DNA of 64,000 nucleotides from Callorhinchus milii (Eukaryota). The position numbers and the translations under genes were made by a program. The stretch is from contig NW_024704743.1 in NCBI RefSeq assembly GCF_018977255.1, positions 28,646,001 through 28,710,000 of the forward strand, given 5' to 3'. Below, piece after piece: positions 1 through 45,758 of the stretch (its first letter is position 1; the number at the start of each line of letters is the position of its first letter). The notes below the pieces were generated by a model. It did not search any database, was not told where the DNA came from, and saw nothing but the letters and a program-made list of their open reading frames with translations.

Positions 1-521
1 CTGATATCTCATGTTGCTTTGGTCTGTCAGATAGCTCCTTTCCAGGTGTGAGAAGTGACTTATTATTGTGCAGAAAAGGTATTTGGATGCCCCAGAACAA
101 TATTATAGTAGCTTGAGTTTTCTTGTAGCTTCATGGTAACAATAATACAATTCGAGGACCTCACTTCTATCTTGAGTGTACCTTCCTTACATTCTCCTTC
201 ACATTTCCTTTAGCTGGTGTCTTGCACTTCTTCAATGAACTTCCATTGTAGTGGTAAGTGACTCCAGTTCCATAATTGAATGATATGTGCTTGCTTAATT
301 ATAAACTCATACCATTTCCAGTACGTTTATCGTTCAGAAAAACACAGTCACTCCACTTTACAGTATCGCCTGTAAAGTTCTTTGGGATGTCCTCCTGATG
401 TGAAAAGGCGCTGTATCAGATGCAAGGATTATTTCTCAACACTAGGAAAGTATTGTTGCTGCTTTCAGGTGGATCACAGATTACACTTGATATACAACAG
501 TAATCATGAGTTATTCAAATG

Positions 522-898
522 ATAATAATGATAATAATAATCCTTGCATTTGGTATAGCACCTTATCACATCTTCGAGCCGTCTCAAAACGCTTCACAGA
601 ATATACTGTGACTTGACTGTATATTTTGTGGGCGAAACGCAATAGACAATTGCGCACAGCAGTGTGCCACAAACAGTCATGGATTGAAGTGACCAATTTA
701 TTATTATTATTTTTTTGAAGGATTTATTACCCCCAGAAAAGTGATCTTCCAATCGACTAACAACCGGGTTCCTACTTATTGCAAGGTAAACAGAGGCGTG
801 TACTTGTCATAAACTTGTCCAACATGTTGCCTTGCCCAGGAATTGAACCCAGGTCTCTCGTTTGCGAGTGCTCTAACCACTGAGCTACAGAACTCCAC
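522..898 (-). mobile_element. tRNA-derived SINE, family A (tRNA-Ala-like head, (ATT)n tail)
   Basis: A box TAGCTCAGTGG and B box GGTTCAATTCC on the - strand; body and tail shared with many copies in the window. Confidence 0.85.
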
Positions 899-2680
899 AT
901 TGATGAAGGCTCCTTGGACCATTTGATCTCTTCCTTCCATCATAAAGTACATAAAGGTGGTCCTTAAATTAGTAGGGCTTCCTGGCATTTACCCTCTTGG
1001 CAACCAGTTCCAACTGATAATTTCCCAGAATGATGTGTGGAACTATCCTGCTGCTCTAGATGGGCAATTGTGGCAGATTTCAACATGTTTTGAGAAAGAG
1101 ATAACTAGCCTTGCATTCTCTGTTTGTCAAATGTATTACAAAAGGAGATAAACGCATTGAGAAGAAAAAGGGGACAGGAGAAAATTTGAGAAAACTTAAT
1201 GGTACAATGAAGGCTGATTACATTGGATGCAGCTTGTTCTCCATCTTGAGTTAACCCACTAAAGTCCTCATCAGTTTTGCTTCACTTTGCAGCAGAGGAT
1301 GTACCCATTATTTCCACTGTTGCTGCCTGTTGTGGCGAAGTATCAGAATAATGGTTCAGTCAGACTCTTGAGGATACTGCTCATAATTCTGTGTTTTTTG
1401 AAACATGAATACAAATCAGAGACACAAGAAAATACAAAGGCACTTTGCAAAGGACACCTTTCAAATGGCCAGTGGAAAACAATCTGACAGTTATTCAGCA
1501 TAGGTTTCCCAGGTCTGAAATGGTTTTATCTTTGAGACCATTATCTTAAAATTGAAGCATGATACAGAATTTACGAATACTATTGAATTGGAAACATTTC
1601 TATATGATCCTAAATTTTAAGACAACATCCTTGAAGCTAAGGCCATGAGAATTTGGGGTTTTTAGATGTGAATTTTAATTTTTAAATAACACCCTTTTCC
1701 CCACACATTCAAATTAATATACTCACTGTTCTGTTCTTGCTGCTAACGTGATGCTATAATGTAAAATGAAAGAGGAAAAGAATAGGAGACAGTGATATTC
1801 AAGGAAGTGGGTATGAGAGAAAGACGAACCAACGTTTGGATTTAATTTCAATGCTGATGATCAAACATGCAAAAAATTATTTCTATTTACTGTAGTGCAA
1901 GAGATCATGACCAAGATCTGTTCAGTTAGATTAAGACTTGGCTGAATGACCTCACAGTATCGATTGATACCAAAGTCAATAGCACTAGCCAACCTGAAAA
2001 AAAAGTCCTCTGCATGTGTGACATTTCTGAAATGAATTGTATCAGGTTTTGTTTTCTCCGTTGCTGTCACTTTCATTCCAGTTATGCTGGCAATCACCTC
2101 ACTTTGAGGGATTAGACCCAACTTCCACCTTTTTAGACAGCTATAAGTCAAACAGTTCAGATTTGTGATGTGATCCGTGTAGGCAGCATTTTAGATCTTT
2201 ATCGGAGAAACTTCTATCTTACTAAAAAAAATCAAGAACTGTTCACAGTGTTTAATAATGTATTTAGCAAGCCAAAGAACAGGATGGGTAATTTTTAAGG
2301 ACAACATAATTAGACTTTCAAACATCATTTTGGAAGTGAAGTGATATATTTCCCTTAGTAGAATGGACAGGAATATTTATACTTCCCACTCCCAATTGTA
2401 TTGGCCATGGCTGAAATGTGTTCTGTAGCTGCACAACCAACAGCACTCGCAGACCACAGATAACCAGTGTTGTTAATGTTTCAATACGCTCTAATTTTCA
2501 GGTTGTGATAATCGTATGTAAAATAATCACATGTAGAGGGATTTACAGATAACCTTAACTAACCACCTTCCAGTAAAATTGGTCAATCGATTCATGGTTG
2601 TTTGTGTGACATTCACCTACAAATACACAGTTACTACACTTAACAAAAATACTCTGAGACATTTGATAGTTCAAACCTTT

Positions 2681-2732
2681 TGTGTGTGTGTGTGTGTGTG
2701 TGAGAGGGAGAGAGAGAAAGAGAGAGAGAGAG
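2681..2732. repeat. (TG)n(AG)n microsatellite
   Basis: Direct reading. Confidence 0.9.
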
Positions 2733-5446
2733 AACATGATATTTCATCATCTAAATGCAGCATGTAATATTTTGGGTCTTATTTTAGAGACCTCAGCAGT
2801 CAGTGCCTTTAATTTCAACAAACCCTATGTGCTTCACTACTGATAAAAACTAATAGTATCCAGTGGGCAATTCCTGAATATTTATCAAAAACATTTCTGT
2901 TAATCTGTGGCAGGTTTAAAACTCAGCAGTAGTTTCAAACCCCATGTGACTGAAGACTGAATCGCAGAAGGTATAATAATAATAATCCTTGCATTTGATA
3001 TTACACCGCATGTTGTCAAGACATCTCAAAGCGCTTCACAGAAAATACTATGAAGTGAATTTAGTGTTTATCTTGTGTGGAAAACGCCCTACATCCAAGG
3101 ATTTACAGCTGTTTTGCACAAAAGTTTCCTTATACCGCAGGTAAAAATGAGCATTTAGCTTTTATGTCATTGTGGATGAAATCTTCGTCCTCCTGTTCAG
3201 CAATATTGATGATGTGCACAAATGGGGACAGAATAGCGGGTGTAATTAATTACAGGCTGTTTGACCCAGGCCATTACAGAAGCTATTTGCACCAGTGGGA
3301 TGCCATGCGCACTAATGGGGTAAATAACAATTCACCTGGAGGATTGGTAATAAGGACACCTGGAAAAACTTTCTGCTCTTTTTGAATATTATCACAGGAT
3401 CTTTTCAAACCCCAAGAACAGAAAGCTGGGCTTTCAGTTCAGCATCTTACCCAAAAGACAGTACCTCCTGACGAATTCAGCACTGCACTAGAGTGTCACA
3501 CTATGAGCTCAAGTAACACATTGCAATTATATAGCACCTTTCATGTCAGGAGGACATCCCAAGACGCTAGTATGTTATCAGTGTGTATGTGCGTAATTTA
3601 TTACCTTTTTTTTCTGATTCACAGATTATGCTCAAAATGCCTGAGACTCATCTCTCCAGACAACGCCTCAAATTGAAGCCCAGGGACAGTATTGTGCAGT
3701 GAAGTATACCAATTACTTTTCAAAGTATTAAAATGAGATTTTTCTTGTAAATATTTCACAATAGGTTGATTACTGGTGTTGCCCTAAGAAAGTCTGTCCA
3801 ACGACTCTACTTTGTGTAACACAACAGCCGTTTATTGTGATTAAGCCATTGAGTTTACTGTAGCCTAGGCAGAGGGTCATAGGGAGAACAGTGAGTCAGA
3901 GGTGGAAGAGTCAAAAACTGATCATGCAACAACTTCAAAGGAACGATAGAGGTGCAACTATGAGCTTGCTTAGTGGGTTTCAAAGCCATAATATCTTTTG
4001 TGGGGAAGGTCTGTGAAGGCCAACTATGCATAACTAAAATGCTGATTTTAAAAGTTAGGCTGACCCAGTCCATTGGACCTTAACCTTAATGGGGACCAAC
4101 AGGGCTGAAGGCATGATGGGGAATTTCTTTGTAATTCGTAACCATGTACAAGTTCTAAATGTATATACATACAAGGGAAGTGAGACTTTTGTTTCATCAA
4201 AATACTACTTCAGTCTCCTCTGGATGATACCAAAGATGATTATGTGTAGAATTTTTGCATAGGGTACGAAAGGAGGAAACCACATTGAACGGGAGCAATA
4301 AAAGGGCAGGAATCTCTTGCGCTTGCCCTGATCAAACTATTGACCCCATTAGTATTGTGTGTAGAGTTACTGTATTCAAATGAACTTTTTTAAAAAAGAG
4401 ATGAATGACAAAAGGCCCCTAATCGTATCAACCCAGAAACTACAATCACTCTCCAGTATATCCTGTGAAATACTTTGAGATATCCCCCTGACATGACAGG
4501 CTCTATACAAAATGTAAGGATTATTAATATTTTAATTTTTATAAAGTCACTGATCAATACATCTCTATAGTTATTTTTAATAAGGCTACTCTGATCAGCA
4601 TAAGGTCAATATAGATATTTGAGGTTTGGTGCCACTTATCTGTAACAAGACTACTTAACTAATATGTAGCTCATTATTCCCTGGTCACTTGAGATTTCAA
4701 CAAGAAGACAAACCTACTTGTCTGATCATCAAATGTTATCAGAATAAATTCCCTTGTGAGAGGATCTCGCATCATAAGCTTATCTGCAAATTCACATTAT
4801 GTATTATTCGGGAGAGGAGCTGAAACCATGAAAAAAAATGCTCCTCACTGAGTTTAAAATTGAGATGTTCTTTTGGCAGCAGTAAATTGTAGTTACTTTC
4901 ATTTGATAAGTATTTTGACAAACTTATCACTGCTAATATTGATCATACCTGCCCAAACAGAAATGATGTGTGTAAACCATACAAGTGACAATCTTGGTCA
5001 ATGCGGAATATGAGATTGGGTCAGTGAAAGGCAGAAACCTCACAGATCGACATCTTGTAATGTTCTTAATTACAGAGAAACTGGAAAGACAACTGAAAAC
5101 AGAGTGTTTGTGTTACTTTTTTTTCTTGTTGGTTTAAACACCCAAATCAAAACTGATTCTACAGTTAACCACAGTAACTGCCTCCTACATAGTGTCTTCT
5201 GTGAATTTACTAGCTTAATGATTGCAACTGAAAAGATCTAATTGATACTAACAGAGGGGTATTAACATTATTAATTCAGGGGCACTCAACTGTTTATATT
5301 GTTAGTAGAAGTTTCAGCATTTAGTATGCTCCACTGAGTGCTTCAATATTAAAGTAACACTGCTTACATTTGATATAGTGCCTTTCATGTCAGAAGCACA
5401 TCTCAAAGTGCTTCACAGGGTTACTGTAAAGTACAGTGACTGTTTT

Positions 5447-6640
5447 TACAACAACAACTTGCACTTATATAGTGCTCTCCACACAGGGTAGTGTCTCAGA
5501 GCGCTTAACAGTGGCGGAGTCTGGCTCTGAGCTGGTGGGGGGAGGTGGCTGTAAGCACGGTTGAAGAGGAAGGTTTTCAGGCAGGACTTGAAAAAGGGGA
5601 GAGAGGGGATTGAAGGAGAGTGTTCCAGAGTTCTGGGGAGTAGTGGCTGAAAGCACGACCTCCGATAGTGGGGCAGAGGGTGTGAGGGATGAGCAGGAGG
5701 CTGGCGCAAGTCGGGCGGAGGCACCCGGTGGTGGATTGGGGAGTGAGGAGGTCAGAGAGGTGCCAGCTAGTGAAGGAATTTGAACACAAATGTGAGGATC
5801 AGAGCCTGTCCAGAGCTGGTGAGATGCGAGTACGTAGTTTGGTCCATGTAAGTATGTGGGAGGCAGAGTTCTGAATGAGCTGGATTTTTTGAATAGTGGA
5901 GCTAGGGAGACTGGCGAGGAGTGCGTTTGACTAATCCAGGCGGGAGGTGACAAACGCATGCACGAAGGTTTCGGCTGCATTTGGGGTAAGGTACAGTCAG
6001 AATCGGGCAATGTAGCGGAAGTGAAAGAAGGCGGTCCTGGTCAGGGATTGGATGTGCGGGAGGAAGGACAGCTGGGAGTTGAACCAAATGCCTAGATTGC
6101 GCGCTGGTTCAGTGAGAGTGAGGGAGAGCCCAGGGAGGTTGAGGAGTTCAGATCCGCAGGAGTGAAGACGTTGATGGAAGCCCAGGAGTATGGCTTCCAT
6201 CTTGTCCATATTCAGCTGCAGGAAGATTGCACTCATCCAGGCCCTGATGTCTGCCAGACAAGCTGATAGAACATCGAGAGACCTGGAGTTGGTACTGGAG
6301 GAGGCAAAGTAGATTTGTGTGTCATCCGCTTACATGTGGAAGTATACTCCGGGTCTGTGGATGACATCGCCCAGAGGGAGCTTATAGATAAGGAAAAGAA
6401 GAGGGCCAAGGATGGAGCCCTGGGGTAGTCCACAGGTGATCAGGTGGGAGCAGGAGGAGAAACCATTTGCCGAGATGAAATAGAGGCAGTTGGTTAAGTA
6501 GGACTTGAACCATGCAAGTGCAGCCCCACTGAAGTAAATGAGGGAGGCGAGGCAGTGGAGGAGGATGGCGTGGTTGACTGTGTCAAACATGGCAGAGAGA
6601 TCCAGGAGGATGAGGAGGCAGAGGGAGCCCTGGTCACAGA
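5447..6640 (-). mobile_element. L2-clade LINE, 5'-truncated and degenerate (RT region through 3' tail)
   Basis: Frameshifted RT motifs FDTVNHAILL, GLPQGSILGPLLFLIY, ARNLGIWFNSQLSF and GGRAFSHYSPELWN; (TTG)n tail at ~5447. Confidence 0.9.
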
Positions 6641-7307
6641 TAGAGCAGGCGAATGCAGGAGAATATTAATGGGAGTGTTGCTCTATTTGCAGGTAGTTTT
6701 TTNACTTTGAGGCTGCAGATTCCCTTTCTGGCATTATAATAGAGAGAGAGGATCTATCTCAATTCACTGATCCGTGGATTTTGATGGATCGTAAAATGAA
6801 AAACAAACCAATAATAATACAATCACAGAGAGCATTGATGTTTTACCTGTAATTGAAACTGTGTCAAACCAGTGTATCATTTGTTATATCTCTGTTTTTC
6901 TGTAATTTTTTTGTTTCAGGTCCTAAAACTGTAGCTTTATTACTATTTTTAAGAAGGGCTTTTCAAGAACTCGCTACTACAGTATAATATTCCTGCATGA
7001 GTATATATGTCTGTAGCTGAGAGTCTTAACAGCTTTAAAATATCAAGTTGTGAATTCAGGGAGTTCTGACTTTTGGGAAACTTTGGGAAATGCTGGTGCT
7101 GCTCCTGTTCATCAGAGGTACAACATCCAAACCCCAATCATAGCTTTTATAACAGTAGCAATAGGCTATTGTTGCTCCATCAGTTTACAAACTGGCTCCA
7201 TATGTAGTGGTCCACAATTGCAAGATACATTATAGATATATTGGGAATCATTATATGGGAAGAAGAATAAATTCTCATGCAACCTAATCATAACATTTTT
7301 ATCATTT

Positions 7308-7452
7308 AACCTAGAAACTTACAGCACAGAAGGAGGCCATTTGACCCATCATGCCTGTGCCGGCTCTTTGAAAGAGTTATCCACTCAGTCCCACTCCCCT
7401 GCTCTTACCCCATAGCCTTGCAATTTTTTTCTTTTCAAGTATTTATCCAATG
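7308..7452 (-). mobile_element. CR1 3'-terminal fragment
   Basis: Reverse complement of the same CR1 3' end (acagcacagaaggaggccatttgacccatc). Confidence 0.75.
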
Positions 7453-8371
7453 TATTAATTGTACAACCTCTTACATAATTAAATCCATCCTTGTACAGCT
7501 GAATAAATTGTGGAGGAAAGAAAGAACCCAGCTCAAAAGTGTTCAACATTTTAAAATTGTTTGAAACTCAGGGTGCTGCCCCATACCACAGTCTATTTTT
7601 AGCAATTGAAAATAGCAGATTGTACCATAAGCTCTTCCGAAGCAATAGATAACTTGCTGCTGTCGTAGACCAGCAAGCAGCATTTCATGAATTTGCTTCA
7701 GAACATACACTGAGCACAATGATTTATTCCCTAAACTCATACAGCTATGGAATTTGATCCTTCAGGACTGAGTTGGTACAAAATGTGTTGTCCAGTATGA
7801 CTGAGTACTTTGCCTGAGGTTGTTATAATAATACTTTCATTTGATGTACCGCCTTATCACATCATTGCCTCTAAGCACTTCTGAAGATGTACTGTAAAGT
7901 GGTGTGACTGTGTATTGTGATCGAGGGGGATTGGGTGTTTGCAGCTGGCTTGAAGTTTATTTAATGGCATATGCTGTCACTGGAGGAATGGGTGAAACAT
8001 TCCATTGCTTTGTGCTTGTATTGTTATTGTTATCATTACAGTAAATAATAAAAGTTCCTACAAGACATTTGGGTTTCCAAATGCTTCCCTGTGAACTTGC
8101 TTGTCTCTGTTACTATAATTTATCTCTCATTTTGTGTGTGGAAAATCTTGGTCTTGATCTGCTTTTACCTGTGCACAAATCACATGATCAATTTACCACA
8201 AGCCTTTAATATCTAGAACAGGAAATAGCAATGGAATATAGTGGAGGGCAGTGATCATGGCATGTCTGAATGCTCCAGTAAATACAGATAACTGCTGTAA
8301 GGTCTGGATTCAAAATAACAGACTCAGGAGGCGGTAAACGCCTCAATAGGTACCTAAAAAGTAACAATTTT

Positions 8372-8478
8372 TAGGCCTATAGGGTAAGAGCAGGGAATGG
8401 AACTATTTGGTAGCTCTTTCAAAGAGCTAACATAGGCACGATGGGTTGAATGGCCTCCTGTGCTGTAAGATTCTATGA
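8372..8478 (+). mobile_element. CR1 3'-terminal fragment abutting the L2 fragment
   Basis: gtagctctttcaaagagc...gaatggcctcctgtgctgtaagattctatga. Confidence 0.7.
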
Positions 8479-8915
8479 ATTCAAGATCCTCATCCTCACC
8501 TATAAGGCCATTCATGGCCTTGCTCCCTCCTACCTCTCCAACCTACTAGCCCCCTACTTACCTGCCCTTACCCTCCGTTCCTCCGGCTCCGGTCTGCTCC
8601 ACATCCCCCACTCCAACCGCCCTACCATCGGTGGCCGGGCCTTCAGCCTCTCAGCCCCGAGGCTCTGGAACTCTATCCCCCAGTGCATTCGCCGCCTCCT
8701 CCCTTTCCTCCTTCAAGGCCGGTCTCAAGACCTTTCTCTTTGACCGTGCCTTCAGCTCCCCTCTCGACTCTCTTCCCCCTCCTCGCTCCCTCCCTTCCCT
8801 CCCCTCACCCTGACCACTTCCCCCCTGCTCGGGTCCTGACCCAACTGTCCAGCGTCTTGGGACATCCTCCCGATGTGAAAGGTGCTCTACAAATGGAATC
8901 TTGTTGTTGTTGTTG
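8477..8915 (+). mobile_element. L2-clade LINE 3' fragment
   Basis: FKILILTYKAIHGLAPSYLSNLL...LRSS...GGRAFSLSAPRLWNSIP; tail ending in ttgttgttgttg. Confidence 0.88.
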
Positions 8916-9779
8916 CATGAACATAAATGAGCACACAGTTTTAATATACAGTGCTAAGGAGTGTGGTGATTACAGTTTGCAGCTACCTTCTTGTAAACCG
9001 GTTAAAAAAGAAACAGAAGTGGTTCTGAGGCATCGAAGGAAGGAAGTTTTCTTTCAGAACATGCAGATATTTTGAATAGTTATTTTTAGAATGTTTGCTT
9101 GCATTTTAAAGGCAGTACTCGGTAGCTTGTTGCTAATGTTGCTACATTTTGCACCTTTTTAAAAAAAATCTACAAATGGTTTCAGCCGTTTCATGATTTT
9201 AGAGTATGTTGTGAATTGATGTTTCCATTTCTAATACACTGGAGCACCAGTTGTGTGTATGGGCATTGGGCTAAAAGATACTGGGGTGGGGGAATTGGCA
9301 AGAGTGTGAGGTTACTTGGGATGCAACTTAATTGCTCTGGCATCCCAAGAAACATGATGCACATGCACGCAACTTTGGGTACATCAACAACAGGATTTTT
9401 TCCCAATAGCACAAAGTAAGTCTGTAAAAATGAGTCGTTATGTTCTTATATAGTGTAGGGTTAGAGTGAGAGAGAGACTGAGGGGTGGGGGAGGTGTAGA
9501 AAAGGTAGGCAGGGAGAATAGAGCTGTTACACTGAGGTACTACAGTGATGGTCTGATTCCTGATGGAACACTTTTGTGTTATCGCTGTAGCTAATTATCC
9601 ACACTGATTGCTTAAGTGTAATAGGAGAAATCCTAATTCATGTGGATAATGGTCTCTGTACTGTAAAAGGGTCATGGATTATAAGAAGAGATGCGTAGAC
9701 GGGATTTTGGTTGAAAATGAATGTTAATTAGTTGCACAGTGTGGACACAGTAACCCTCAAAAGGGTTAACTCACTTTCC

Positions 9780-9838
9780 TCTCTCCATAGATGCTGCCTG
9801 ACCTGCTAAGTGTTTCCAGTGACTTCTGTTTTTATTAG
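9780..9838 (+). repeat. Short dispersed repeat, possibly a Penelope-like terminal fragment; inverse copy at ~15315-15365
   Basis: tccatagatgctgcctgacctgct.agtg.ttc.ag..acttctgtttt occurs here and reverse-complemented at 15315-15365; the family assignment is tentative. Confidence 0.5.
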
Positions 9839-10373
9839 TACAGTGTGGAATATTCTTTTCACCTGACACTGATCTGATACTTATAATTAACTTGTAGGTT
9901 GGTATGTATTTGAATTCATATTAGATGTTACTCTGCTGAAGAATGAGGAAAAGGTGCTAATCTTTGCTTTTGAAATAGTGCTTTTCACTTTGTGAGTCTC
10001 AAAATGCTGAAAAGTAGATTTGTTGGTGACACAGCAGCCAATTCGTGCACAGCAAAGATATGGCAGTAAAGTTAATAAAGTGGACAAAGCCTTATAAAAC
10101 AATGGTTCCGATCACTAAACACAAGCACTAGGTGAAAGGACCATCTCACCATCCAGATGGAGATTGTGACTATAACAGTAACCCACTGTAGACAATACAC
10201 AGGGGAATTACTTTGAGGGGGTGGGCAACTATTTTTCTTTCAGGTGAAACCCCACACCTTATAGTCAGCTATTCTTAATGTTACTAGGGGAACTAAAACC
10301 TCAAGTCTTCCTTCATATTTTATGCTATTTCTTTTTTTAAAAAAAGATTTTCCTATCTGTCTAACACACAAAG

Positions 10374-12665
10374 AATTAAGTATTTCAAAGACAGTTTATC
10401 CGTAAATGCTTTCTCTAATTTGAGGGTTGTCTTGTTCACTGATGAATATATTTATGGATCAGATCATTGACTAAATAATAATAGTAATAATAATCCTTGC
10501 ATTTGATATAGTGCTTTTCATGCCTTCCAGACGTCTCAAAGTGCTTCACAGAATAGACTGTAAAGTGAATTGACTGTATAATATTTGTGGGCGAAATGCG
10601 GCAGCCAATTGCGTACAGCAGTGTCCCACAAACAGTTGTGGATTGAAATGACCAATTTATTTTGAGGGATTATTATCAGGCTTGTGGAGTAAGGAAACTT
10701 GCCCAAGATTTCACCCTGCCAGGAATTGAACCTAGGACTCTCGCTTGCAAAGCGAGTGCTCTAACCACTGAGATACAGGACTCCACAAATAAATATATTT
10801 CTTATTCTGTCTGCTGTTGAATTTCAATTTTTTTAAGTTGTTAGGTAATGGCTGTGCATTCTACATCGAGAGATGATGTAAGTTACATCACTATTTTCTT
10901 TAGAATTTTTTAAATTTGACGGTATTGTACTTTTTTCCTTTCTGTTTCATATCCATGGCAAAGTTTCTTGCTGCCTTGTATTCTTCCTCTCCTGGTATTC
11001 TCATTGGATTGAAATCAAAATTTACTGTACAATTTTCTATTTTAACTCATTCTTTCTCTACAACTCAAAATTTTACAACTCCATGATCCCACCAGTATTC
11101 CCTTCCTTCTTTCTCAAGCCAGTGGTTTGGCGCAAATCCTATGGCAGGATTTGCTCCTTGGCTATTGTATAATAATAATAATCCTTGCATTTGATATAGT
11201 GCTTTGTCACATCATTGAGAAATCTCAATGCACTTCACAGAATGTACTCTAAAGTGAATTGATGGTTTATTTTGTGGACAAAACATATGTATGCTGTTAA
11301 CAACTGGAGCTAAAATAAGACCAGTGCAAATTATGTTCAATTTAGTAATGTCAAGGTTAGAGATCAGCACACACGTGTGTACTGCAGTATTTACTGTAAT
11401 CGTATGAGAGTATTTACTTAGACCACTAAATCTGTTTGGATTCTGTTTATTGACATATTTTGACTCATCTCTGCAGGCTTACTGGCATTTCCAGGTGTGT
11501 GACCGTTGAGGTTGCACATATCACGACAGTCTAGCGTAAGCTGGAAGGATGGACTTGTGTCGCTGAGAGCCACAAAAGACAAGTGTTAACCCAAATCCAG
11601 GTTACACAGACACAAATCCAGAATGTTAAAGCCACTGATTTACATGTGGTAAATACAAACTCATTCAACTGTCATGGCTCTTTACAACGAATATAGTGTA
11701 TCTGTTTGAGGATGGATGAGAGAAGAATGTTTCATGTCCTTGCGGATTTAGTTTTATTTCAGTTTCAATGTGTCCTGGGAGTCCTGATTCTGAAGACCAT
11801 TCATGCAGTATTGTGCATGGGAGTAACCCAATAATGGAGAACTGAGGCCCCAAATGCCACGTAGTCTAAGCCTTCCACTTTTCTCTTATAATTAAAGGTT
11901 GTGCCAAAGTGTGGAACATTCTTAGCAGTTTTCTTAGCAGTTTTTCCATAAGTCTTATAACAGAAAGGTTTCTAAATTATGAACTTAAAAAAATTCCACA
12001 ATTTTGTGGAGTCTAAAAATATTTTAAGACAGTGGTCTCTTTTTGACTAAGACTTGATGGAATATAGGGGCTCTGGTCTCAAAGTGTACAAATCCAGGCT
12101 TGACTTCCATTCAATTTCACTGCAGTTCCTGGTGGTTAGATCTGGTGATTGTGTTCTATTTTCAACCTGAAATCCAGGCTGGAAATTATTATGATTCTGA
12201 TGCCTGGTTTGAAAGTGATTTGGAACAGGATCACTATTGATAGTGCATACTGCCAATCAAAGGTATCAGTTCTGTACTACAATTAAAAATGATACACTAT
12301 TGGACCACTCAAGTGTCTTAAATTGAACTCTGTTATTCCAAAAAATCACATTTGGGACTGTTACAGCTGAGAAAGGAGCTATAATGATAACTGAGTTTTC
12401 AACTGTTGTGCTTATGGAATGTTTTTTAACAAAACACTTATTGGCTTCAAAATGTGTACTTTGAAGAGACAGTTGTTGATATTTGTTGGGATTTTTGTCT
12501 GACGGACAATGTATCTTTTAGTCTTTTGCAGATGTGAAATTGGCTGAAGAAAGAATATGGGAAGTACCATTTCACAGAAATGATCTCAGCAGCACCAGCA
12601 AAGAGGAGTGAACTGAGCTTCCAACTTCAGTGTAAAATGAATCCACCTGAAGACAATATAATTAT
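10374..12665 (+). pseudogene. DUSP22: Non-processed DUSP22-like dual-specificity phosphatase pseudogene; three recognisable exons: 10374-10441, 11477-11648, 12532-~12665
   Basis: Conceptual translations IKYFKDS/FIRKCFL*FEGCLVH, LTGISRCVTVEVAHITTV/SVSWKDGLVSLRAT/VNPNPGY/QTQIQNVKATDLHV and M*NWLKKEYG align with DUSP22 TRHFKESIKFIHECRLRGESCLVHC, LAGVSRSVTLVIAYIMTVTDFGWEDALHTVRAGRSCANPNVGFQRQLQEFEKHEVHQ and YRQWLKEEYG; order, strand and intron positions match; multiple disabling lesions. Confidence 0.85.
10475..10786 (-). mobile_element. SINE family A, ~33 bp downstream of the first DUSP22 pseudo-exon
   Basis: Same head, body and tail as 522-898. Confidence 0.85.
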
Positions 12666-15404
12666 TTGATCTGTAAACCGTGCAGTATAAACATTGCAAA
12701 TTTCATTCATCTGCCAGGATTGATTTTGTCTTGTGTTGATCACATAAACATATCAAAGTAAAAATTGTGACCAGTAAAAAAGGCATTGGTTGATCCATGG
12801 TGGTGTGGCCCATCCTGCACTCCTCCTGTTTCTCTCACAATGGATAGAGCCCGAAAGCAGCCCAGTACTATGGAACTCACCAGTGCTTTATACTGGTATA
12901 TCGTTCAGGTTACTATTGATGTTTCATGCAAAACTTTTAACTGAGTAAGACAAAAAGGTTTTGGAGGAAAATAGGCTAATGAACTTTCAATTACAAAGAA
13001 CAAACAGCCCAGGAACACATAACAGACAGAAGAAAAAGTAAGATACTACTTTAATGCAGAAATTCCTGCATGAGGTTGAAGACTTCTGAATCCAAAAAGC
13101 ATGAAAAGATGTCAACCACAAGATCAGGAGTTCTTCCTTCAATCCCACTCATCATACACTTTGAACAAGCAAACAGCTGGAAATTATTGTAGAAGGTGCA
13201 AGTTTATCCATTTCCCCTGTCTTTCCCTCATGTTCATTCCCAGAATTGGGGGAAAAAATGACTGTGAGACATTGATACAACAGTACACAACGATAAAAGA
13301 GCCTGAAAATCCGATAGGCTTTATTCAGAATGGCAACCAGAGCCTCAATCAATGATGTACCAAAAATATTGTACATGTTATTTTCTATGTGACTTTACAC
13401 CATTTTGTAGAAGAGGTTTTGAACCAAATTGGTGCAATTTCCCAACTATTATCTAAATTTAATGCACTCTGTGGGTTGAGATTATTTACTTATGCAGTAA
13501 ATAATACATGTACAGATACTAAAACAGCAGTACTAAATCAGGAGACAAGTTGAGGAAATAAAAAACAAATTATAAAATGCACTGAACAAACTGTTTTGGC
13601 AAATAATGTGCTGACGTAATTGATGCAAACCATTTACGGAGAGTTTTAATTTGGTCTAGAAGATTGTTGTTGGGGATCTAAAGAGACAGAAGCTTTAAAC
13701 CTTTACCACGACATGTTTTTTTCCTCACTCTGTTCATAGCAACAACTGGAGATGGTGTTTCAGTTTTGCCTGATCATGAATTATGCTAATCCAAAAATAG
13801 TTTTGTAAATAAACACTCTACACTTCAGAAAAAAAATAATGTTTTGCTTCATACTTCATGCTCCCTTTATGGCTTACACCCTATTATTGCAATGGTTTCT
13901 TTAGAATTAGACCAGTCAGGGCTATGGTAACAACTGACACTAGTTCAGTGTCTTCACTCTGGACAACAGTTTAAATTTACTACTAATCGGAATAGAATCG
14001 CCCTTTAGTCATTGAACTGTTCCCTTCGTCACCTCAAAATAGCAGAAATTCTTGTCTCTGCATGTCAGTAACATCTGCTGGTTCAGGTTCAACTTTAAGT
14101 TTTCTGTTTATGCAAATTTCAGCTGTTAAAGGGTTAGTATCACGCAGTTGCAAAATTACGCACTGATAGGCAGTCTCTAAATTTATCTGCACAATTTTAT
14201 TTGACATGCATAAACTGAGGCAAAGATCTTCTGTACATTAATAATAATCCTTTGTTCGACAAGACTTTGAAAATATTTTTTAACTTCTGTACAGTTATAG
14301 ATGCTTTCTATAATTCCTATTTTATGACTGGAACAACTATTGGTCCATAATATTTAATATACCAGTGATTTAGTTTACATCGTTACCATTTGGTTAAAAA
14401 ATTCCTTTGTTTACACTGAAAGTGAGACGGACACAACCAACACTACATAAGGGGTAATACATACTAGATGTTAAGAAGTGGTTTGAAAAGGTTAGGCAAA
14501 TATCTGCTACAATCTACATTATTATTTTTAAAATAATATCCTCAACTTTATGAGAGTCCATTCACTTTATTCCTTTCTATTCTGTCCTCCTTCACACAAG
14601 AGGCCTCACCTGTAGATTTTAACCCCAGTTACCATTAAGAATTTACTTATTGCTACCTCTTTCCCTTATCATATGGTACTAAGGGGCTTCCATCAATAAT
14701 ACATCTCAATATGAACCTACCTCCCAGATGCTAGTTAAGTTTGTGCACTAGCTCTCTGGAAATTCAATACCATAGCTACCTGGGTCACTCGTACAATTTC
14801 TATTCACTTGTTATGTAATCTTGTTTGCTCTGAAGGGTGGCATTTTGCAATGTCATCTCTTATTACCATATTGTATGTATTTCAGGAGCATGAAGCATGT
14901 ACCTGAGAAGCAGTCTAGAGAGCAGACTGTTTGACTCTTTACCTGGAGTCTGGGTTCATAAACATGCTTGTAATGTTCAAGGCTTGGTAGCTACAGAGAG
15001 GCAGGCTTCAATTGGAGAACATGATCGTCAGTGGGATATAATCATAACATTGCTCACAGATGGGTGTATGTTGAGAAGATAACAGATGTTTCGATCTGGA
15101 TTAGACTTCAGCATACTGCACTGCCATCATTCACAAGGTCCTCGCCTCACACTGTGGTTGCCAATCCTAAAACCCAGTATTGCAGCCTTCACTTCCAAAT
15201 CAAATTACTATTTTTAAAAAAAGTTGACTTTTATGAAGTTAATTATTTATGAGGAATTTCCATTCTCAATAACTTTGACATCTTAGTATTCTCAGACAAA
15301 CCTTTCTGAAGTAAACAAAAACAGAAGTTGCTGAAGCACTCACCAGGTCAGGCAGCATCTATGGATACATTCACAAGCAGTATTTTGCTTTCTGGTTAAA
15401 GCCT

Positions 15405-26731: not shown

Positions 26732-27152
26732 CTTTTGCAACATTAAGCCTAGGAAAATGCACCTCCCTACACCAGTAATATATATATATGTATATGTATA
26801 TATATGCAGTATATATAAGCTTCCCTGCATCAGTAAAATACACCTCCTGAGATATATGTATATCTATATTACTGATGCAAGAAGGTTTATATATATTACA
26901 GATATATAGTGTGTGGCACACGTAGTTTTGCTGAAAAATGAAGTCTCCCTCAATCACAGCAGTCTCCAAAGCTGCTGAGAGGGCTTCATAAACGCAGCTC
27001 ATGCAAACTCGGGACAAATAAACCGTAACCGTGAGGAATTGGGGCTGAAGGTCGGCGTCAGAGAGAGGTCATCCGCACTGACCGGTTGCAGTGGAAGAAA
27101 GTGTAGGTCCGAGAGGGGGGTGTCAGCGGCCAACAAACAGCCGGCGCTTGTT

Positions 27153-27153
<1 letters not shown>

Positions 27154-27187
<34 letters not shown>
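27154..27187 (+). repeat. Poly-G tract (34 G)
   Basis: Direct reading. Confidence 0.95.
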
Positions 27188-27189
<2 letters not shown>

Positions 27190-27302
27190 CGTGGCAGGAG
27201 GGGGACACACTGGGACACTTCAATGGGGAGGGGGCGACCTCCTGTACACTCCAGATCCAGACTCTGTCCCACTTTAGCTGTGCATATACGGTTTGCGGCA
27301 CC

Positions 27303-27482
27303 TGTGCCCCCCAGCACTGTGCCCCCCAGCACCGTGCCCCCCAGCACCGTGCCCCCCAGCACCGTGCCCCCCAGCACTGTGCCCCCAGCACCGTGCCCCC
27401 CAGCACCGTGCCCCCCAGCACCGTGCCCCCCAGCACCGTGCCCCCCAGCACCGTGCCCCCCAGCACCGTGCCCCCCAGCACT
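27303..27482 (+). repeat. 15-bp minisatellite (GTGCCCCCCAGCACC), 12 copies
   Basis: Counted directly; near-perfect units, one a C short. Confidence 0.95.
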
Positions 27483-27699
27483 GCCGCCCGAGGGTGTGAA
27501 TGGCATCGCTTTGGGTGTAAAGTGCTCAGAGCAAAGGCAGGTGCGGGGTGGGGGTGGGGGTGCGGGTGGGTGGGTGGGTGGGGGCTGAGCCGCCCCTCGC
27601 TGCCCGGCTCAGTGCTGACCTGACACCGGGAAATATCACCGGGAGGGGGTGGGGGGGGGGGGGGTGGGGGGGGGTCTTCCCTCCGGATTGCCCATCACT

Positions 27700-28034
27700 T
27701 TGGTCGCGCGTAATGGGGAGAGAGGGGGGAGACACCGCTCTCAAGTCTCTGCCCCGTGTTTTATTAAGACGGGGGTCGACGTGACCGGTAATGGTTTAAG
27801 TGAGAGGCGCAACGCCAGGTCCTGTCGGTGCTGTCGGTGCTGTCGGTCGGTCGGTCGGTCGGTCGGTGCTGTGCTGTGGGACCCGCAAAAGAGCGGCGTT
27901 TCCCATTTCGCGTGAGCTTCTGCTAAAAAAAAAAACCCCAAGTGGGGGCTGTGCGATTGACACCACCCCCTCAGCCCTCGACCCCGCCCTCTGCCCCCGG
28001 GCTTCAATATATACGCACCCGGGAGACCTTATCC
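27700..28034 (+). promoter_or_regulatory. IRF4 core promoter / CpG-rich region
   Basis: CpG-dense relative to the CpG-poor flanks; GC box CCCCGCCC 27982-27989; TATATA 28008-28013; IRF-like TTTCCCATTTC 27899-27909. Confidence 0.65.
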
Positions 28035-28117
28035 GCACTCTGTGTGTCGAGTGGATCTGCCACGTCGTAACGAGTCCAAACTAACTTTAAACCCGGGTCA
28101 CACATAAGATACCAAAG
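28035..28117 (+). other. IRF4: Probable non-coding exon 1 of IRF4 (start approximate)
   Basis: Begins ~25 nt downstream of TATATA (28008-28013) and ends at a strong donor AAG|gtaagg (28117|28118); mammalian IRF4 also has a non-coding first exon. Confidence 0.65.
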
Positions 28118-28176
28118 GTAAGGCGACAGGACGCACCATCGCAGATAACTGCTAATATTGCTAAAAGTTTTTTTTT

Positions 28177-28765
28177 GGGGGGGGAGGGGGGGGGGTGATG
28201 GGTGGTGGGGGGTGTGTGTTGTGTGGGGTGGGGGGTGTATGTGTGGGGTGGGGGGTGTATGTGTGGGGTGGGGGTGTCTGTGTGGGGTGGGGTGTGTGTG
28301 TGTGTGGGGTGGGGGGTGATGGGTGGTGGGGGGTGTGTGTGGGGTGGGGGTGTCTGTGTGTGGGGTGGGGGTGATGGGTGGTGGGGGTGTGTGTGGGGTG
28401 GGGGTGTCTGTGTGTGGGGTGGGGGGTGATGGGTGGTGGGGTGTGTGTGGGGTGGGGTGATGGGTGGTGGGGTGTGTGTGGGGTGGGGGTGTGTGTGTGT
28501 GTGGGGGGGTGTCTGTGTGTGGGGTGGGGGTGTCTGTGTGTGGGGTGATGGGTGGTGGGGTGTGTGTGGGGTGGAGGGTGTCTGTGTGTGGGGTGGGGTG
28601 TGTGTGTGTGGGGTGGGGGTGTGTGTGTGTGGGGTGGGGGTGTGTGTGGGGTGTGAGTGGGGGGTGGGGGGTGATGGGTGGTGGGGTGTGTGTGTGTGGG
28701 GTGGGGGTGTGTGTGGGGTGGGGTGTGTGTGTGGGGTGTGGGTGTGTGTGGGGTGTGAGTGGGGT
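28177..28765 (+). repeat. G/T-rich compound repeat (GTGTGTGGGGTGGGG / GTGATGGGTGGTGGGG) in IRF4 intron 1
   Basis: Direct reading; almost only G and T. Confidence 0.9.
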
Positions 28766-29172
28766 ATATTTGGTCCATGTCCGGCTCAACGATTGGGTGA
28801 GTGACACTGTGTTGGAGCAGTTCGGGATGGATCTGTTTGAGAGGGGATTTGGCGAGTGGGGCTGTGGGTGGGTGTGAGCGCAGGGGATCTGCACACTCTT
28901 GACCCCCCCCCACCCCCCCCCCCCCCTCCCCACACACCACACACACAGCATCGGTTTATTTGTTCAAAAACTTTTTTTTTTTTGGGGGGGGGGGGGGGGG
29001 AGAGAAAGACAGAGAGAGAAAGACAGAGAGAGAAACAGAAGTCGCCTCTTACTGCAGTTGGTGGTGCATTGCTCTCCGGAGTCTCCCGCAGAGCGACTCG
29101 TGTGATTTATTCACGTAGTGCAGACCCCTGAGGATCAGTCCAGTCATTGCAGAGTTGGGGATATTTTTTTTT

Positions 29173-29345
29173 GGGGTGTGTGTGTGTGTGTGTGTGTGAT
29201 GTGATGTGTGATGTGATGTGTGTGCGTGTGTGATGTGTGTGCGTGTGTGTGTGTGTGTGATGTGTGTGCGTGTGTGATGTGTGTGCGTGTGTGTGTGTGT
29301 GTGATGTGTGTGCGTGTGTGTGTGTGATGTGCATGTGTGTGTGTG
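29173..29345 (+). repeat. (GT)n / GTGAT compound microsatellite
   Basis: Direct reading. Confidence 0.9.
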
Positions 29346-29505
29346 GGGGGGGGGTGATGTTTGGTGGGTGGGTGGGGGGGGGTGGGGTTGCAATCTAATG
29401 TTTGGCACCTGCTGCGACCCGCTGTGCGCTTACGATGCGTCTTGTGTCTCTGTGTGTGTCTGTGTGTGTATGTGTGTGTGCAGTGCAGTGCAGTGAAAAA
29501 CAGAC

Positions 29506-29706
29506 ATGAACATAGACACGGATTGCAACATGGCCCCAGTGAGTTCCGGAAACGGCAAACTCCGACAGTGGCTGATCGAGCAAATCGACAGCGGCAAATA
29601 CCCGGGTCTGATCTGGGAGAACGAGGAGAAGAGCATTTTTCGCATCCCCTGGAAACACGCCGGGAAACAGGACTACAACCGCGACGAGGACGCAGCGCTG
29701 TTCAAG
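29506..29706 (+). CDS. IRF4: IRF4 exon 2 (first coding exon): N-terminus and first half of the DNA-binding domain
   Basis: MNIDTDCNMAPVSSGNGKLRQWLIEQIDSGKYPGLIWENEEKSIFRIPWKHAGKQDYNRDEDAALFK, then donor AAG|gtaaag. Confidence 0.97.
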
Positions 29707-32700
29707 GTAAAGGCAGAGGACCCGAAGGGGTTGGCGGGGGTGGGATGGGGTGGGTGGGGTGGGATGGGGATGGGGTGGGGTGGGGTGGGATGGGATGGGG
29801 TGGGTGGTGGGATGGGATGGGGTGGGTGGGATGGGTGGGATGGGGTGGGGTGGGATGGGGTGGGGATGGGATGGGGTGGGGTGGGATGGGGTGGGGTGGG
29901 GTGGGATGGGGTGGGGTGGGATGGAGTGGGGTGGGGATGGGATGGGATGGGGTGGGGGTGGGTGGGATGGAGTGGGGTGGGATGGGATGGGATGGAGTGG
30001 GGTGGGATGGGATGGGATGGAGTGGGGTGGGATGGGATGGGTGGGTGGGATGGGATGGGGTGGGTGGGGTGGGATGGGTGGGGTGGGGTGGGATGGGGTG
30101 GGATGGAGTGGGATGGGATGGGATGGAGTGGGGTGGGATGGGATGGGATGGAGTGGGATGGGATGGGGGGCGAGGCTTTTTGCTCACCCTCTGCTTTGCC
30201 CCTCTTTTGTTTCAATCGCTCTCTTTTTACTTCTACTTTTAATGTGCAGTTTCCTCTTCTCGCGTTTTACCAGCGATTTTCTCACCCCCCCCCCCCCCCT
30301 CCCCCCCCCCCCTTCCCCCGAGACATCTCAGACTCCCCACTCTCTGGTGGGGTTCGTGTCTGAATCGCCCGCAAACAACGGTCCCGATTCACTGTGCGGC
30401 GTATCCTGTGAAGCGCTCTGAGACGTCCGGGAGGACGTGAAAAAAAAAAACGCTCTGTCAAATGCGAGGATTATTCTTGTATTATTATAAGTCACTTTGG
30501 GTGTTTTTTGGGGGAAAAAATCAGCTCAGAATCAAACGTGCATTTTTCGTAGTTGCCCATTAGTTTTCCAGAGTTATCCACTGCCTCATCTGTGATTGTT
30601 AAATGTTGTGAAGTCGAAAGATCCGCTTTGATATAACCACTGAATAATGTTCCCGAGTGTGAGTGTGTGAGAGTGCACTAACCTGTCTGTCTGTTCACAT
30701 GTTCTCTGGTCTCCCACATGTTAACATGGGTAACTCGTTGATCGTCGTATGATTGGACATGTTCACAGTATCTTCTCCCTCCTTCCCTCCTTCCCTCTCT
30801 CTAACTTTTCTCCCTGCACCTTCTCTGCCATCCCAGGGTTTGCTCTGTAGCGGCTTTAAGACGCTCGCCTGAAGCCACGAGATTTTAACACAAGTCTGTA
30901 AAAGGACCATCACAGGCACTTGTCAAATCACGGTGCACGAATGCTTTGGGCTCCTTTATGTATGTAATTCTGATCAGTGAACACTGCCACTTGAAGGGCG
31001 ATGGTATATAATGTGTCTGATTCACCTACCGATGGCTCAGTTTAAGTCAGGCACTGAGATATGCTTATTCTGTACCTTTCTCGCTTTCTATTACACTCTG
31101 CCCGGCATCGCCTTTACTTTCAGGAAAGCTGCTAAAATAGAGAATCAAGTGGGTGTGCACGAATATTCTCTGGTGTTCACACGGCCATCGAGGCACATGT
31201 TTTTTGTTCGGGAAACCACATCACCGCTAAGAAAATGACATGAGTTTTAGGTGCATGTGTGCAGGCACTAAGTGGTCAGCATTGCATGATACCCAGAGTG
31301 ATTCTTTGCATGTAACGATTGTAGGTAAAGTACCTCATCACGATTCATGAATTGTTCACTGCGGATAATATGTTTTAAGAAAAAGATTTCTAGGGTGTTG
31401 CTGGTTCGAAATGAAAATGACCTTGGGTTCACTGGTAAATGAAGGCTGCACAATTTCCTAATATAATTGTGTGTCCAGATTTTCATTGGTGGGTATGTTG
31501 CAGTGTAAAATGCATTACTTATGTGGCTGTGTTTATGAGACATGTATAAGTGCATTTCTGGTTGAAATGTTCTTGCAGTTGAATATATATTTGCTCCAAT
31601 AGATAACAACCTGTCTTTCTTGCAAGTAGTTTTATAAACCAGTAACCTACAAACATAGATAGCTTTTGCTTGTGGTTTTGTGTGTAGGATATTGTCAATC
31701 ATGACCAGTAGCTTGCTGATCAAAGATTATTGTTATTATTGCAAAAAAAAGATTTTGAAGAGTAAAAAGGTCACTTATCACAGCACACTTTTGCTTGGAA
31801 GATGTATTAATGGTCAACTTAAGTGACAGGTGATCAAGAATGAGGTCCTCATGTTTTTCAGTGCCCATTTACTGGTTGCATCATTACATCAATGGTGAAT
31901 TAGTTAGGAGGAAATCAGCTTTCATTTAACTGTTTTGCAGTTTATTATGTGTGCAGACAATACCCAGAGGTTTAGCTGTGAAATATAGTTTAGCAATCTA
32001 ACCAGCAAAACCTTAAAAATCAACACATAAGTCACTGTTGTGATGCGTTTTGCACATTATAATAAGTACTTTATTTTGACAAATTATTCATAGTCTCCAT
32101 AGTAACAGTTCTCCTGAATTACTTCAATCCATGCTTTATAGTAGCATTATGCTGAACAGTATCAGCATCGATATCATCAATGTTGTACTCTTATGATAGC
32201 ATGGTAGATGATTATTGTTCAAGATGCATGCGTTTGATATTTGCTGAGTGTGAAGCTGAGTAAATGTTAGTGGGTTTGCTGATCAAATTATTTCTAATTT
32301 GTTTCTTTTCAAGGCCTGGGCACTTTTCAAAGGCAAATTTCGTGAGGGGTTTGACAAGCCAGATCCTCCCACCTGGAAGACCAGGCTGAGATGTGCCTTG
32401 AATAAGAGCAATGATTTTGAAGAATTGGTGGATCGTAGTCAGCTTGACATCTCAGATCCATATAAAGTCTACAGAATTGTACCAGAAGGAGCAAAGAAAG
32501 GTAAATAATTACTCTTATTTTGATCAGAATTTGATTTGTGGATTGCACTGGAGGTAATGTTAAACATTTGTGGATTATGTTTTCCTTGAATGTATTTTGA
32601 CTTCCATGTCTCATATGTCAGCCTGGCTCTGAGTCAGAAGGTCGTGGGTTCAAGCCCCACACCGGGACTTGGAATCACATTGTCTAACCTGACACTCCAA

Positions 32701-35700
32701 TGTACTGCTGGGAGTGTGTTTCATTGTCGGAGGTGCTGCCTTCACATGAGACATTAAGCCGAGGTCCCGACTGCCTGTTCAGGTGGACGTTAAAGATCCC
32801 ATGGCACTACTCAAAAAGAGAAGGGAGTTTCTCCCAGTGTCCTGGGCAACAATCAACCCAAATAAAACTAAAATAAAATTGATCACTGCTCCATGGCTGT
32901 TTGTGGGACATTGCTGTGCGCAAATTGGCTTTCGCTTTCACCTACAAAATAAATATTTTCAATCCACTTTTGCGATATATCCTTGAAGCGTTTTGTGACG
33001 TCTCAATGATGTGATAAGGCACTATTCCAAATGCAAGGAGTGTTATTATTATGATAATTTCTAGCAGTAATTTTGTGCAACTTTCTTGAACTGATTGAAT
33101 ACTCTTATTCAGATTGCCATTTTGTTGTTTGTTTATATCAGCAGGAGCAAAACAAATGAGCTTAGAAGAACCACAGATCCTAATAAACCATCATTCCTAC
33201 ACTGTGCCATCTACATATTCCTCACTGCAGACCCAAGTAAGCCAGACTACTTAAGAATTTCAACCTGAAAGTTATTACTGCATATTTCTTCTTTCTGCTA
33301 AAAAATGTTGGGAGCGGGAAAAAATAAATCATTAAATTGTGTCTTTCAGATGCCCAGCTACATGGTGCCACATGAGCGTACCTGGAGAGATTATGAACCA
33401 CCACATCCTGAACACTATCCGTGTTCAGGAGTTCCATTCGCAGCACGGAACCATCACTGGCAAGGTCCTGCCTGTGAAAATGGTAAGATTTACCACATAA
33501 TGGCCTATGCAGTGGAGACAGGGATTTTAATTACTATTATCCAGAAAGACTGCCTCTTCCTTCAGTCCAGGACAACGGTGGCCAGCCTTTATGGTTGGCC
33601 AACAAAAGGCATTTTCTTGATTGAATATTTCTTGATTTATGCCATAAATACTACTGATTGAACACGGATTTACCTGGACTTGTGCGATTGTTTGGGGGAG
33701 GGTGCGTGGCCACTTCTGGCCCGCAGGCCACAGGTTGGCTGCCACTGGTCTAGGATAAGCTCAAATACAATCAATCCAATATGCTGCAAGGTGCTTTAGC
33801 TTGATTCTGGGGATCATTCTCCATCATATCCAACCACATTTTTAAAAAAAAGTGTTCTTAATTCATTGAGATACTGATACTTAAATGAATGTAGTCACCG
33901 TATTAGTAATTGATTTATGCAGTATGTGTCACTCTCATTTTTACTGTGCATTCCAAGACTAAGCAAATGGGGAACCAGTTGGCAGCTCTGGCAAGCACTG
34001 ACTGCAGTGTTGGTTTCTGCAGTTACTCATTGCATCAGTAATTCAAAAAATGACCATTTCCAGAATTGTTAGACTTATTTGCTTGCATGGGTGTATCTTG
34101 AAGGATTGTTGTAAATGGATCCACACTTCATTCAGTTGTATATCAATATCAGAATAGGCGTGTTAAAGCCTGGACCCAATTATTTGCCATATGTTCAGAA
34201 TTTGTTGCTGTGGATAATTTGGAATGCATATTTATAAAACGATATCCTTCATCTGCGAAGTTAGGTGAAAAAAACCCACTGTCAATATGCTTGCATAGGC
34301 AAATCTCCTTTAAATAATCTCATACAAGACATTTCTACTTTACCAAATTTGAGGTGCATTTTAAACGTATTTGCTACATCTTGTTACCAGGTAAAACTAG
34401 TTACACTATGCAAATGATAATGGTTGAAACAGTGCATTTTATCTGTATGTAATTCTAGTCCCTTCTCATTATTTCCAGCTTACCAGGTAACTGGATCTTT
34501 TTATGCTTGTTCACCTGCGGATCCACAAGCCCCTGGCATTCCTATTGAACCTATGAGATCTGCTGAAGGATTGTCCCTATCAGGTAAGCCTGAACATGTA
34601 TAGACTATAATGAGATTTTTTTCCAACTCTCAATTGTTGGTCAGAGATGTATAGTTTCAAGAATGTGTGGATTTCAGTCCCATTTGAGTCATCCCATTTG
34701 CTATCCTTTGTTAATTAGGAGTGAGGGTTTGATAATATTACAAAAACAAAAATTGCCAGTTTTTAGGATTTTGGAGTATTTTTACCAAAAATAAAGGTAC
34801 TTTTGATAAATAACTTTTTATTAATTAAAAATAATGAAGTAATTCAGTGCTAAAGAATCATTTGGTGTAATTACACACATTTGCTCATAGTCCGAGAAAA
34901 GCATTGGATAATACCATTGCTGCATCTGTGTAGAATGAGCCCAAGGTTTCATAAGTAATATCAAAGCGACCATAGGAAATAAAACTATTCAATTGCACGA
35001 GTAACACAGAAAATTGAAGAATGCTTTTCAGAATCTGGTCAAAACAAAATGATCACTGTGAGTGACAGTAATAAGAATGGGATAAAATGATTATAGATCT
35101 ATGTCAGAATGTAGCCTCAGGAATGTCCCAGGTTGGAAGCAAACTGAAGAGTTGAGCTAACCTGTTGGAAGGCAACTGTGATTGAAGCTGGTAGTGATTG
35201 AAGCTGCATCTGCTTTTGTTGCTAGAAAAAAAATCTAAATTTGTTGCATTTTCTGCAGTGCAGTGTCAACTACAAAATATATTTGTCATTTTGACCACAT
35301 TCAGGCACTGCTCCAAGGTGTCTGACCTTGTAATCTCAAATTAGGGGCTTTTTGCTATGGATCTCTGTTGTACCTGACTGATTCTGCAAGTGGCAGTCAT
35401 TTCTTAACACTTATTGACTAGAAATAGAATTTTGATTGCAGGTGTATGAAAGGTAAAAGGCAATTCTTCAAACCACAACAAAAAGCACTTCCTTTCTTAT
35501 ATAAAGCTTCTGGATGCCCATCATACTTTTTTTTATAAACGTTTGGGTTTCTGTACACACATTGCAATGTGGCTCATGTGCAATAACTGAACGAGCACCA
35601 GAAAAATGCACTTATGAAACTGTCTGGTTGGTTTCCTAGTGTTTTTCACTAGATAAGCAATGTGAAGCCCACAATATGGGGTCTGAAATGTGGGATTCTA

Positions 35701-45525: not shown

Positions 45526-45758
45526 GCAACTGCAATTTGACCATGAATCAGAAAAGCAAATAATCATTTTGGGCTCAATAATAATTCATTAAAAAAAGAT
45601 TTTTTGCTCTTATTTTTAATGTCTGTCGTAGTTGTGTGGTTGCACAAGAAAGATTTACCTTAAGAGTTGTGAACAAGAGCCAATAGATCCATTTCCCAGA
45701 CAACTTGTTATTTTAGAGCAACTATTGTTTTACCAATGGTAGTATTGTGACAGACTTG

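Follow-up and report, generated by a model that had tools for sequence, protein, structure and literature searches.

Is the sequence upstream of irf4a in the elephant shark, Callorhinchus milii, what is left of DUSP22, and has this species lost the gene? DUSP22 (JKAP) acts through Lck to restrain the activation of T cells, and mice in which it is knocked out are reported to develop autoimmunity (PMC10789758, PMC5295375). C. milii serves as the reference species for early gnathostome immunity (PMC3964593); a loss would make a jawed vertebrate with adaptive immunity a natural DUSP22 knockout. A preliminary description of the sequence had proposed a DUSP22-family pseudogene at this site; here, we analyzed the whole stretch of DNA around it (64,000 nucleotides, hereafter the window).

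Three decayed exons upstream of irf4a

A degenerate short-motif scan of metagenome contigs returned 32 loci and supplied the references used throughout, namely L020, which holds intact vertebrate DUSP22 genomic exons of the bird type, L007, of the teleost DUSP22-B type (its assignment as DUSP22-A-like was dropped), and L029, a spliced invertebrate-type homologue. Reference exon sizes were taken from L007 and L020; L020 led to named DUSP22 proteins, and a turtle protein led to 150 family representatives. Three decayed DUSP22-like exons were found on the plus strand in collinear order, at 10374-10441, 11477-11648 and from 12532, about 17 kb upstream of irf4a; the two introns between the exons, 1035 and 883 nt long, have splice signals. 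We number them 5 to 7, following what we take to be the structure of the human DUSP22 gene.

The exon 5 remnant (10374-10441) follows an AG acceptor and measures 68 nt, compared to 75 nt in the matching intact teleost exon (L007), owing to a 7-nt deletion at 10394/10395; it contains TAA at 10416-10418, and AT replaces GT at the dead splice donor (10442-10443), all of which agrees with the preliminary description. The exon 6 remnant (11477-11648), which spans the P-loop to the N-loop, comprises 172 nt between cag and gtaaat with both splice dinucleotides intact, exactly as long as its intact bird counterpart (L020), to which it is identical in 107 of 178 columns (z 8.4 against about 2000 random stretches). 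Its frameshifts (-2, +1, +1), given in the preliminary description, were recovered unprompted by a frameshift-aware aligner. The TAG that had been reported at 11532-11534 is present; it sits on the junction of the 2-nt deletion and is thus a by-product of that deletion, with no separate nonsense change. The exon 7 remnant (12532-12564) begins in phase 0, as in L020, behind AG at 12530-12531, and carries TGA at 12535-12537 in place of Arg147 of the reference, as described before. Its homology, by contrast, ends at about 12564 and does not extend to 12665 as originally drawn: no significant homology lies 3' of that point, and the stretch to 12665 is noise, with a score of 11.5 that was reached by 299 of 300 shuffles. 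A hand-spotted similarity in this tail was rejected.

Frameshift-aware local scores were 52.3, 98.4 and 35.8 for exons 5, 6 and 7, none of which was equaled in 300 shuffles or by random genomic stretches of the same size (0/298, 0/300 and 0/298, respectively). When the whole window was scanned on either strand, each remnant exon was the top match, in order and on the IRF4 strand, bearing out the proposed order and orientation of three intron-separated remnants. In a wide scan, exon 7 taken alone scored 39.4, just under the highest value from 12 shuffled 28-kb sequences (39.8). In a blind PDB search (177,635 sequences), all nine matches to the first half of exon 6 were DUSP22 (8, E 0.02-0.056) or DUSP15 (1, E 0.072), and the sole match to the second half was DUSP15 (1/1, E 0.064). 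Two 20-aa pieces, one each from exons 5 and 6, had no PDB match, none of seven single-frame readings of the remnants matched Pfam DSPc, and an ESM Atlas search gave family names only. The alignment to DUSP22-family proteins that had been suggested as a check is provided by the frameshift-aware scores; plain tblastn alone gave E values of 0.09-3.5 per piece and no DUSP match at E <=0.01, so annotation would miss the remnant.

The syntenic anchor is irf4a, which is intact. Its eight coding exons were mapped to 29506-42932 on the plus strand, with mismatches only at exon edges. Three open reading frames at 29.5-37.2 kb match Pfam IRF and IRF-3, and one exon of 122 residues matches C. milii irf4a (P0121) at all 122 positions, the next matches being coelacanth and bamboo shark at 80%. 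The remnant lies directly upstream on the same strand, in keeping with the proposed position of DUSP22 immediately 5' of IRF4 and with the order DUSP22-IRF4-EXOC2, which is kept from mammals to teleosts (PMC1634998, PMC9597995). DUSP15 is linked to IRF10, not IRF4 (PMC1634998). Locus tags of DUSP22 and IRF4 are consecutive in pangolin and tailed frog, and turtle read-through models (P0044-P0046) fuse DUSP22 residues 1-145 to full IRF4 on one strand; these three models may represent DUSP22-IRF4 read-through transcripts in three species. In a weak test, an EXOC2 C-terminal motif had no match in 42933-64000, the 21 kb downstream of IRF4. The long N-terminus of a catshark IRF4 (P0447) proved not to be DUSP22.

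Disabling lesions and the age of the decay

The catalytic residue of DUSP22 is Cys88 (PMC7589817). In the remnant, this split codon reads TG+G (Trp) because the first base of exon 6 is G, where L007 and L020 have TG+T or TG+C; the enzyme would therefore be dead even if splicing and frame were intact. This lesion is missing from the preliminary description. With the altered Cys88 codon, the stops and the frameshifts, there is no open frame containing the P-loop residues Cys88 and Arg94.

These lesions are real and not assembly errors. A contig from the DNA-type run X1 covers 9900-10468, including exon 5 and its dead donor, with 0 differences, and a second X1 contig covers 11233-13754 with 0 gaps and two substitutions (13573 and 13656), both outside the exons, so that the two contigs together span all three exons without a gap. 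X1 differs from the window at these two sites; it is possibly, though not certainly, independent of the sample that was assembled. A contig from another study (X5) covers exon 6 with 0 differences.

Decay is extensive. Against the consensus of 147 stored entries, 42 of 88 residues are identical, and 18 of 37 invariant residues (held by >=95% of the 147 entries, and by L007 where it reaches) are changed. At non-degenerate sites, 15 of 66 differ, corresponding to a Jukes-Cantor distance of 0.27 (0.15-0.47), an upper-leaning value because the reference is without cartilaginous fish and part of the divergence may predate the loss. The neutral rate of the C. milii lineage is reported to be the lowest of the vertebrates compared (PMC3964593). 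Taken together with the change of half of the invariant residues, this suggests that the loss is probably old. Callorhinchus and Chimaera split about 187 million years ago (PMC12952989); an attempt to date the loss from a second organism (organism B, X17) was rejected, as only pieces of >=80% identity were compared. The remnant is not a retro (processed) pseudogene: it retains introns with splice signals.

Family identity of the remnant

The representatives carry database names that sort them into three vertebrate groups: DUSP22(-B), DUSP22-A (teleosts, birds, salamander) and DUSP15. A free tree nested the remnant within DUSP22(-B), with a branch length of 1.24 substitutions per site. On a fixed backbone with 88 branches, 99.8% of the likelihood weight lay inside DUSP22(-B), >=5.15 lnL above any outside branch, and placements with DUSP15 or DUSP22-A received 0.02-0.07% each (6.3 lnL worse each). 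Constrained trees differed by only 2.2-3.6 lnL, and the AU test rejected no alternative (DUSP22-A, DUSP15, invertebrates; p 0.12-0.43). The tree contained no cartilaginous-fish sequence, and one non-vertebrate long-branch row (P0351) was removed before the tests.

Diagnostic residues were mixed. Glu83 and Val96 of the remnant are shared by 94% of DUSP22 rows and by 0% of DUSP22-A and DUSP15 rows, Trp149 is DUSP22-type, and the exon 5 and exon 7 diagnostics are DUSP22-type; Lys64 and Ile92 are DUSP15-type and Val125 is DUSP22-A-type. The exon statistics, the PDB matches and the tree placement thus uphold the earlier assignment to a DUSP22-family pseudogene. Within the family, DUSP22(-B) is the likely origin, favored by placement but carried by synteny, which decides the identity since the AU test rejects no alternative group.

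The closest known system is vertebrate DUSP22 (JKAP, JSP-1; 'DUSP22-B' in teleosts and coelacanth; PDB 1WRM, 4WOH, 6LVQ; P0042, P0301), with which the remnant shares exon sizes (172 nt exactly; 75 nt less 7), phases, order, strand and the place upstream of IRF4. It differs in having no open frame, no Cys88 codon, no live exon 5 donor and no recognizable C-terminal tail. DUSP15 (PDB 1YZ4; P0300, P0302, P0338) and DUSP22-A (P0291, P0306, P0355) have the same domain and only a few exon 6 residues in common with the remnant, whose neighbor is irf4a, whereas DUSP15 is linked to IRF10/FOXS1. DUSP22-A (P0291, P0299, P0306, P0320, P0355, P0406) stands apart from DUSP22 and DUSP15 as a third paralogue group in vertebrates; our literature search found no paper containing both 'dusp22a' and 'dusp22b'.

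Intact DUSP22 orthologues are present in tetrapods, lungfish, coelacanth, sturgeon and teleosts. A shark, ray or chimaera DUSP22 was not seen among the best 120 of 449 matches, the best 120 of 679 matches or the 26 entries inspected by name among the 150 representatives. All named rows in the best 120 of 679 were tetrapod; coelacanth DUSP22 was also missed there, so the missing shark DUSP22 is no evidence of absence. DUSP22 models of lungfish and others (P0294, P0329, P0370) skip the 75-nt exon 5 in frame and thereby lose the catalytic Cys.

Missing exons and other copies

Exons 1-4, encoding the N-terminus and the Asp57 loop, did not rise above noise in 1-10373. An exon-2-like patch at about 975-1013, behind AG, was no better than a minus-strand match there and was dropped. 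CpG observed/expected is <=0.53 in every 1-kb bin before 23 kb; given this low CpG and the missing exons, the 5' part of the gene is probably outside the window or gone.

A second or intact copy of exons 5-7 is absent within the 64-kb window. X1 depth over exons 6 and 7 was 8.7-10.9, compared to 7.78 for the single spanning contig, a weak hint against a further copy at >=80% identity, depth being no copy number. A loss of DUSP22 in the elephant shark is unreported in the literature searched, which lay outside subscription journals, bioRxiv supplements and the supplements of other papers, and the supplementary file of PMC3964593 makes no mention of it.

Probable transcription of the locus

Contigs from two studies (X5 and X6) fit the window from 12520 and 12522, respectively, and carry 206 and 159 upstream letters that depart from the genome sequence; the X1 DNA contig passes this point uninterrupted. 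We took X5 and X6 to be RNA, a guess; their contigs give no strand or level. An AG at 12520-12521 on the plus strand, 10 nt upstream of the ancestral acceptor and behind a pyrimidine tract, is a candidate cryptic acceptor that RNA would use here. According to a depth count, exon 6 is not the source of the unplaced upstream letters. A different X5 contig has one end precisely at the exon 6 acceptor (11477) and passes the exon 6 donor to reach 11920. Given the joining of upstream letters to 12522 in contigs from these probable RNA runs, transcription and splicing of the locus probably continue and would yield a non-coding RNA. The frames that start at 12522 all end early, after 29, 4 and 7 codons.

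A putative terminal exon of such a transcript would occupy 12522-13830 on the plus strand, with AATAAA at 13808-13813 and a genomic A8 run from 13829. An X5 contig ends at 13830, just past AATAAA and at the A run, an end that polyadenylation and internal priming on the genomic run may equally have produced. Overlapping it, a plus-strand non-coding stretch (13046-13900) also aligns in organism B (X17), with a contig at about 13046-13259 and 13427-13900. Among the differences listed, at least 20 substitutions and at least one insertion fall within 13080-13228, and the similarity could reflect constraint or ordinary slow divergence. Exon 6 is without cover in X6 and X17, which is uninformative, as an intact orthologue would probably lie below the 80% cut-off. 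Within intron 6, a separate 182-nt X6 contig lies at 12182-12363 and has no obvious splice ends.

Discussion

Together, these data are best explained by a transcribed unitary pseudogene: the broken exons 5-7 likely belong to the species' own DUSP22, lie at its ancestral site, cannot encode a phosphatase and are probably the only copy. We assign this reading a probability of roughly 70%. Under it, the coding sequence would have been freed from selection long ago and then gained substitutions, indels and the dead donor, while a promoter 5' of the window would remain active. Lacking the exon 5 donor, the transcript would be spliced from an upstream exon, mainly to the cryptic acceptor at 12522 and sometimes to the exon 6 acceptor, and the product would be a non-coding RNA ending near 13830. 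The loss would be tolerated through cover by DUSP22-A or DUSP15, both hypothetical in C. milii. Primate GULO and UOX are unitary pseudogenes of this kind. Like them, the remnant contains introns, is multiply disabled and sits at the ancestral locus; unlike them, its locus appears to be still spliced, and the absence of an intact copy is known only within the 64-kb window.

The main competing explanation, which the preliminary description had set beside lineage loss and which we consider unlikely, holds that an intact DUSP22 persists elsewhere and that only a partial duplicate copy of exons 5-7, tandem or dispersed, has decayed here. It would account for the failure to detect exons 1-4 in 1-10373, and the upstream letters of the RNA-like contigs could then derive from an intact neighbor. 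Yet the remnant occupies the place beside IRF4 that belongs to the functional gene in other vertebrates, the window contains no other copy, the X1 depth is close to that of the spanning contig (a weak hint), and exons 1, 2 and 4 are short enough to escape detection at this level of decay. It is improbable, furthermore, that the remnant stems from one of the paralogues DUSP15 and DUSP22-A, or underwent partial conversion by either, instead of being the DUSP22(-B) orthologue. The exclusive DUSP15 match of the second half of exon 6 in PDB, the three residues of DUSP15 or DUSP22-A type and the non-significant AU tests speak for such an origin; the likelihood weight of 0.02-0.07% per placement, the linkage of DUSP15 to IRF10 (PMC1634998) and the DUSP22-type diagnostics of exons 5 and 7 speak against it, and single-base decay can mimic a paralogue residue.

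A remaining function at the protein level is a slimmer prospect still. Intact upstream exons 1-4 could be spliced to the cryptic acceptor to give a truncated, non-catalytic peptide under selection, a scenario that draws on the joined contigs of two studies and on the exon-5-skipped DUSP22 models found elsewhere (lungfish P0294). However, all frames from 12522 close early, the window contains none of exons 1-4 in intact form as far as could be detected, and Cys88, Arg94 and Asn128 lie in skipped or broken exons (PMC7589817). Finally, chance resemblance or assembly error might be suspected from the plain tblastn results, which held no DUSP match at E <=0.01; both are refuted by the frameshift-aware and DNA-level statistics, the collinear order, the matching splice sites and the presence of the same lesions in X1.

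On the reading as a transcribed unitary pseudogene, a gene retained by mammals, birds, amphibians and bony fish has probably been lost from the elephant shark. The remnant shows that a missing DUSP22 here would be a secondary loss and not a primitive state. The impact is limited, as unitary pseudogenes are common, two close paralogues could compensate and the search spans a 64-kb window.

In human cells, an IRF4 super-enhancer lies inside DUSP22 (PMC7448273, PMC10772542), and the elephant shark has the same gene pair side by side. By analogy, this arrangement suggests why the interval could outlive the protein. A tentative extension, possible in our view though doubtful, is that chimaeras lost DUSP22 early and kept the locus as a spliced non-coding RNA, with a constrained 13046-13900 acting as an enhancer or cis-regulator of IRF4. 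If so, the DUSP22-IRF4 linkage would have been kept for regulation and not for the phosphatase, and this natural knockout would set the JKAP protein apart from the control elements of IRF4 that are carried by human DUSP22.

Repeats in the window

A very abundant tRNA-headed SINE with copies across the window occupies 10490-10790 in intron 5 and draws most of the sequencing contigs placed on the window. An Rfam search of 9000-15000 returned only its tRNA-like head (10711-10782, minus strand, 52.3 bits). Fragments at 5446-6665 (minus strand), 8450-8900 (plus strand) and 44070-45563 (minus strand) resemble open reading frames that we take to be of LINE reverse transcriptase. Long G/T-rich simple arrays, built of 15-mer, GT and GGGGT units, surround the first IRF4 coding exon at 27150-30320.
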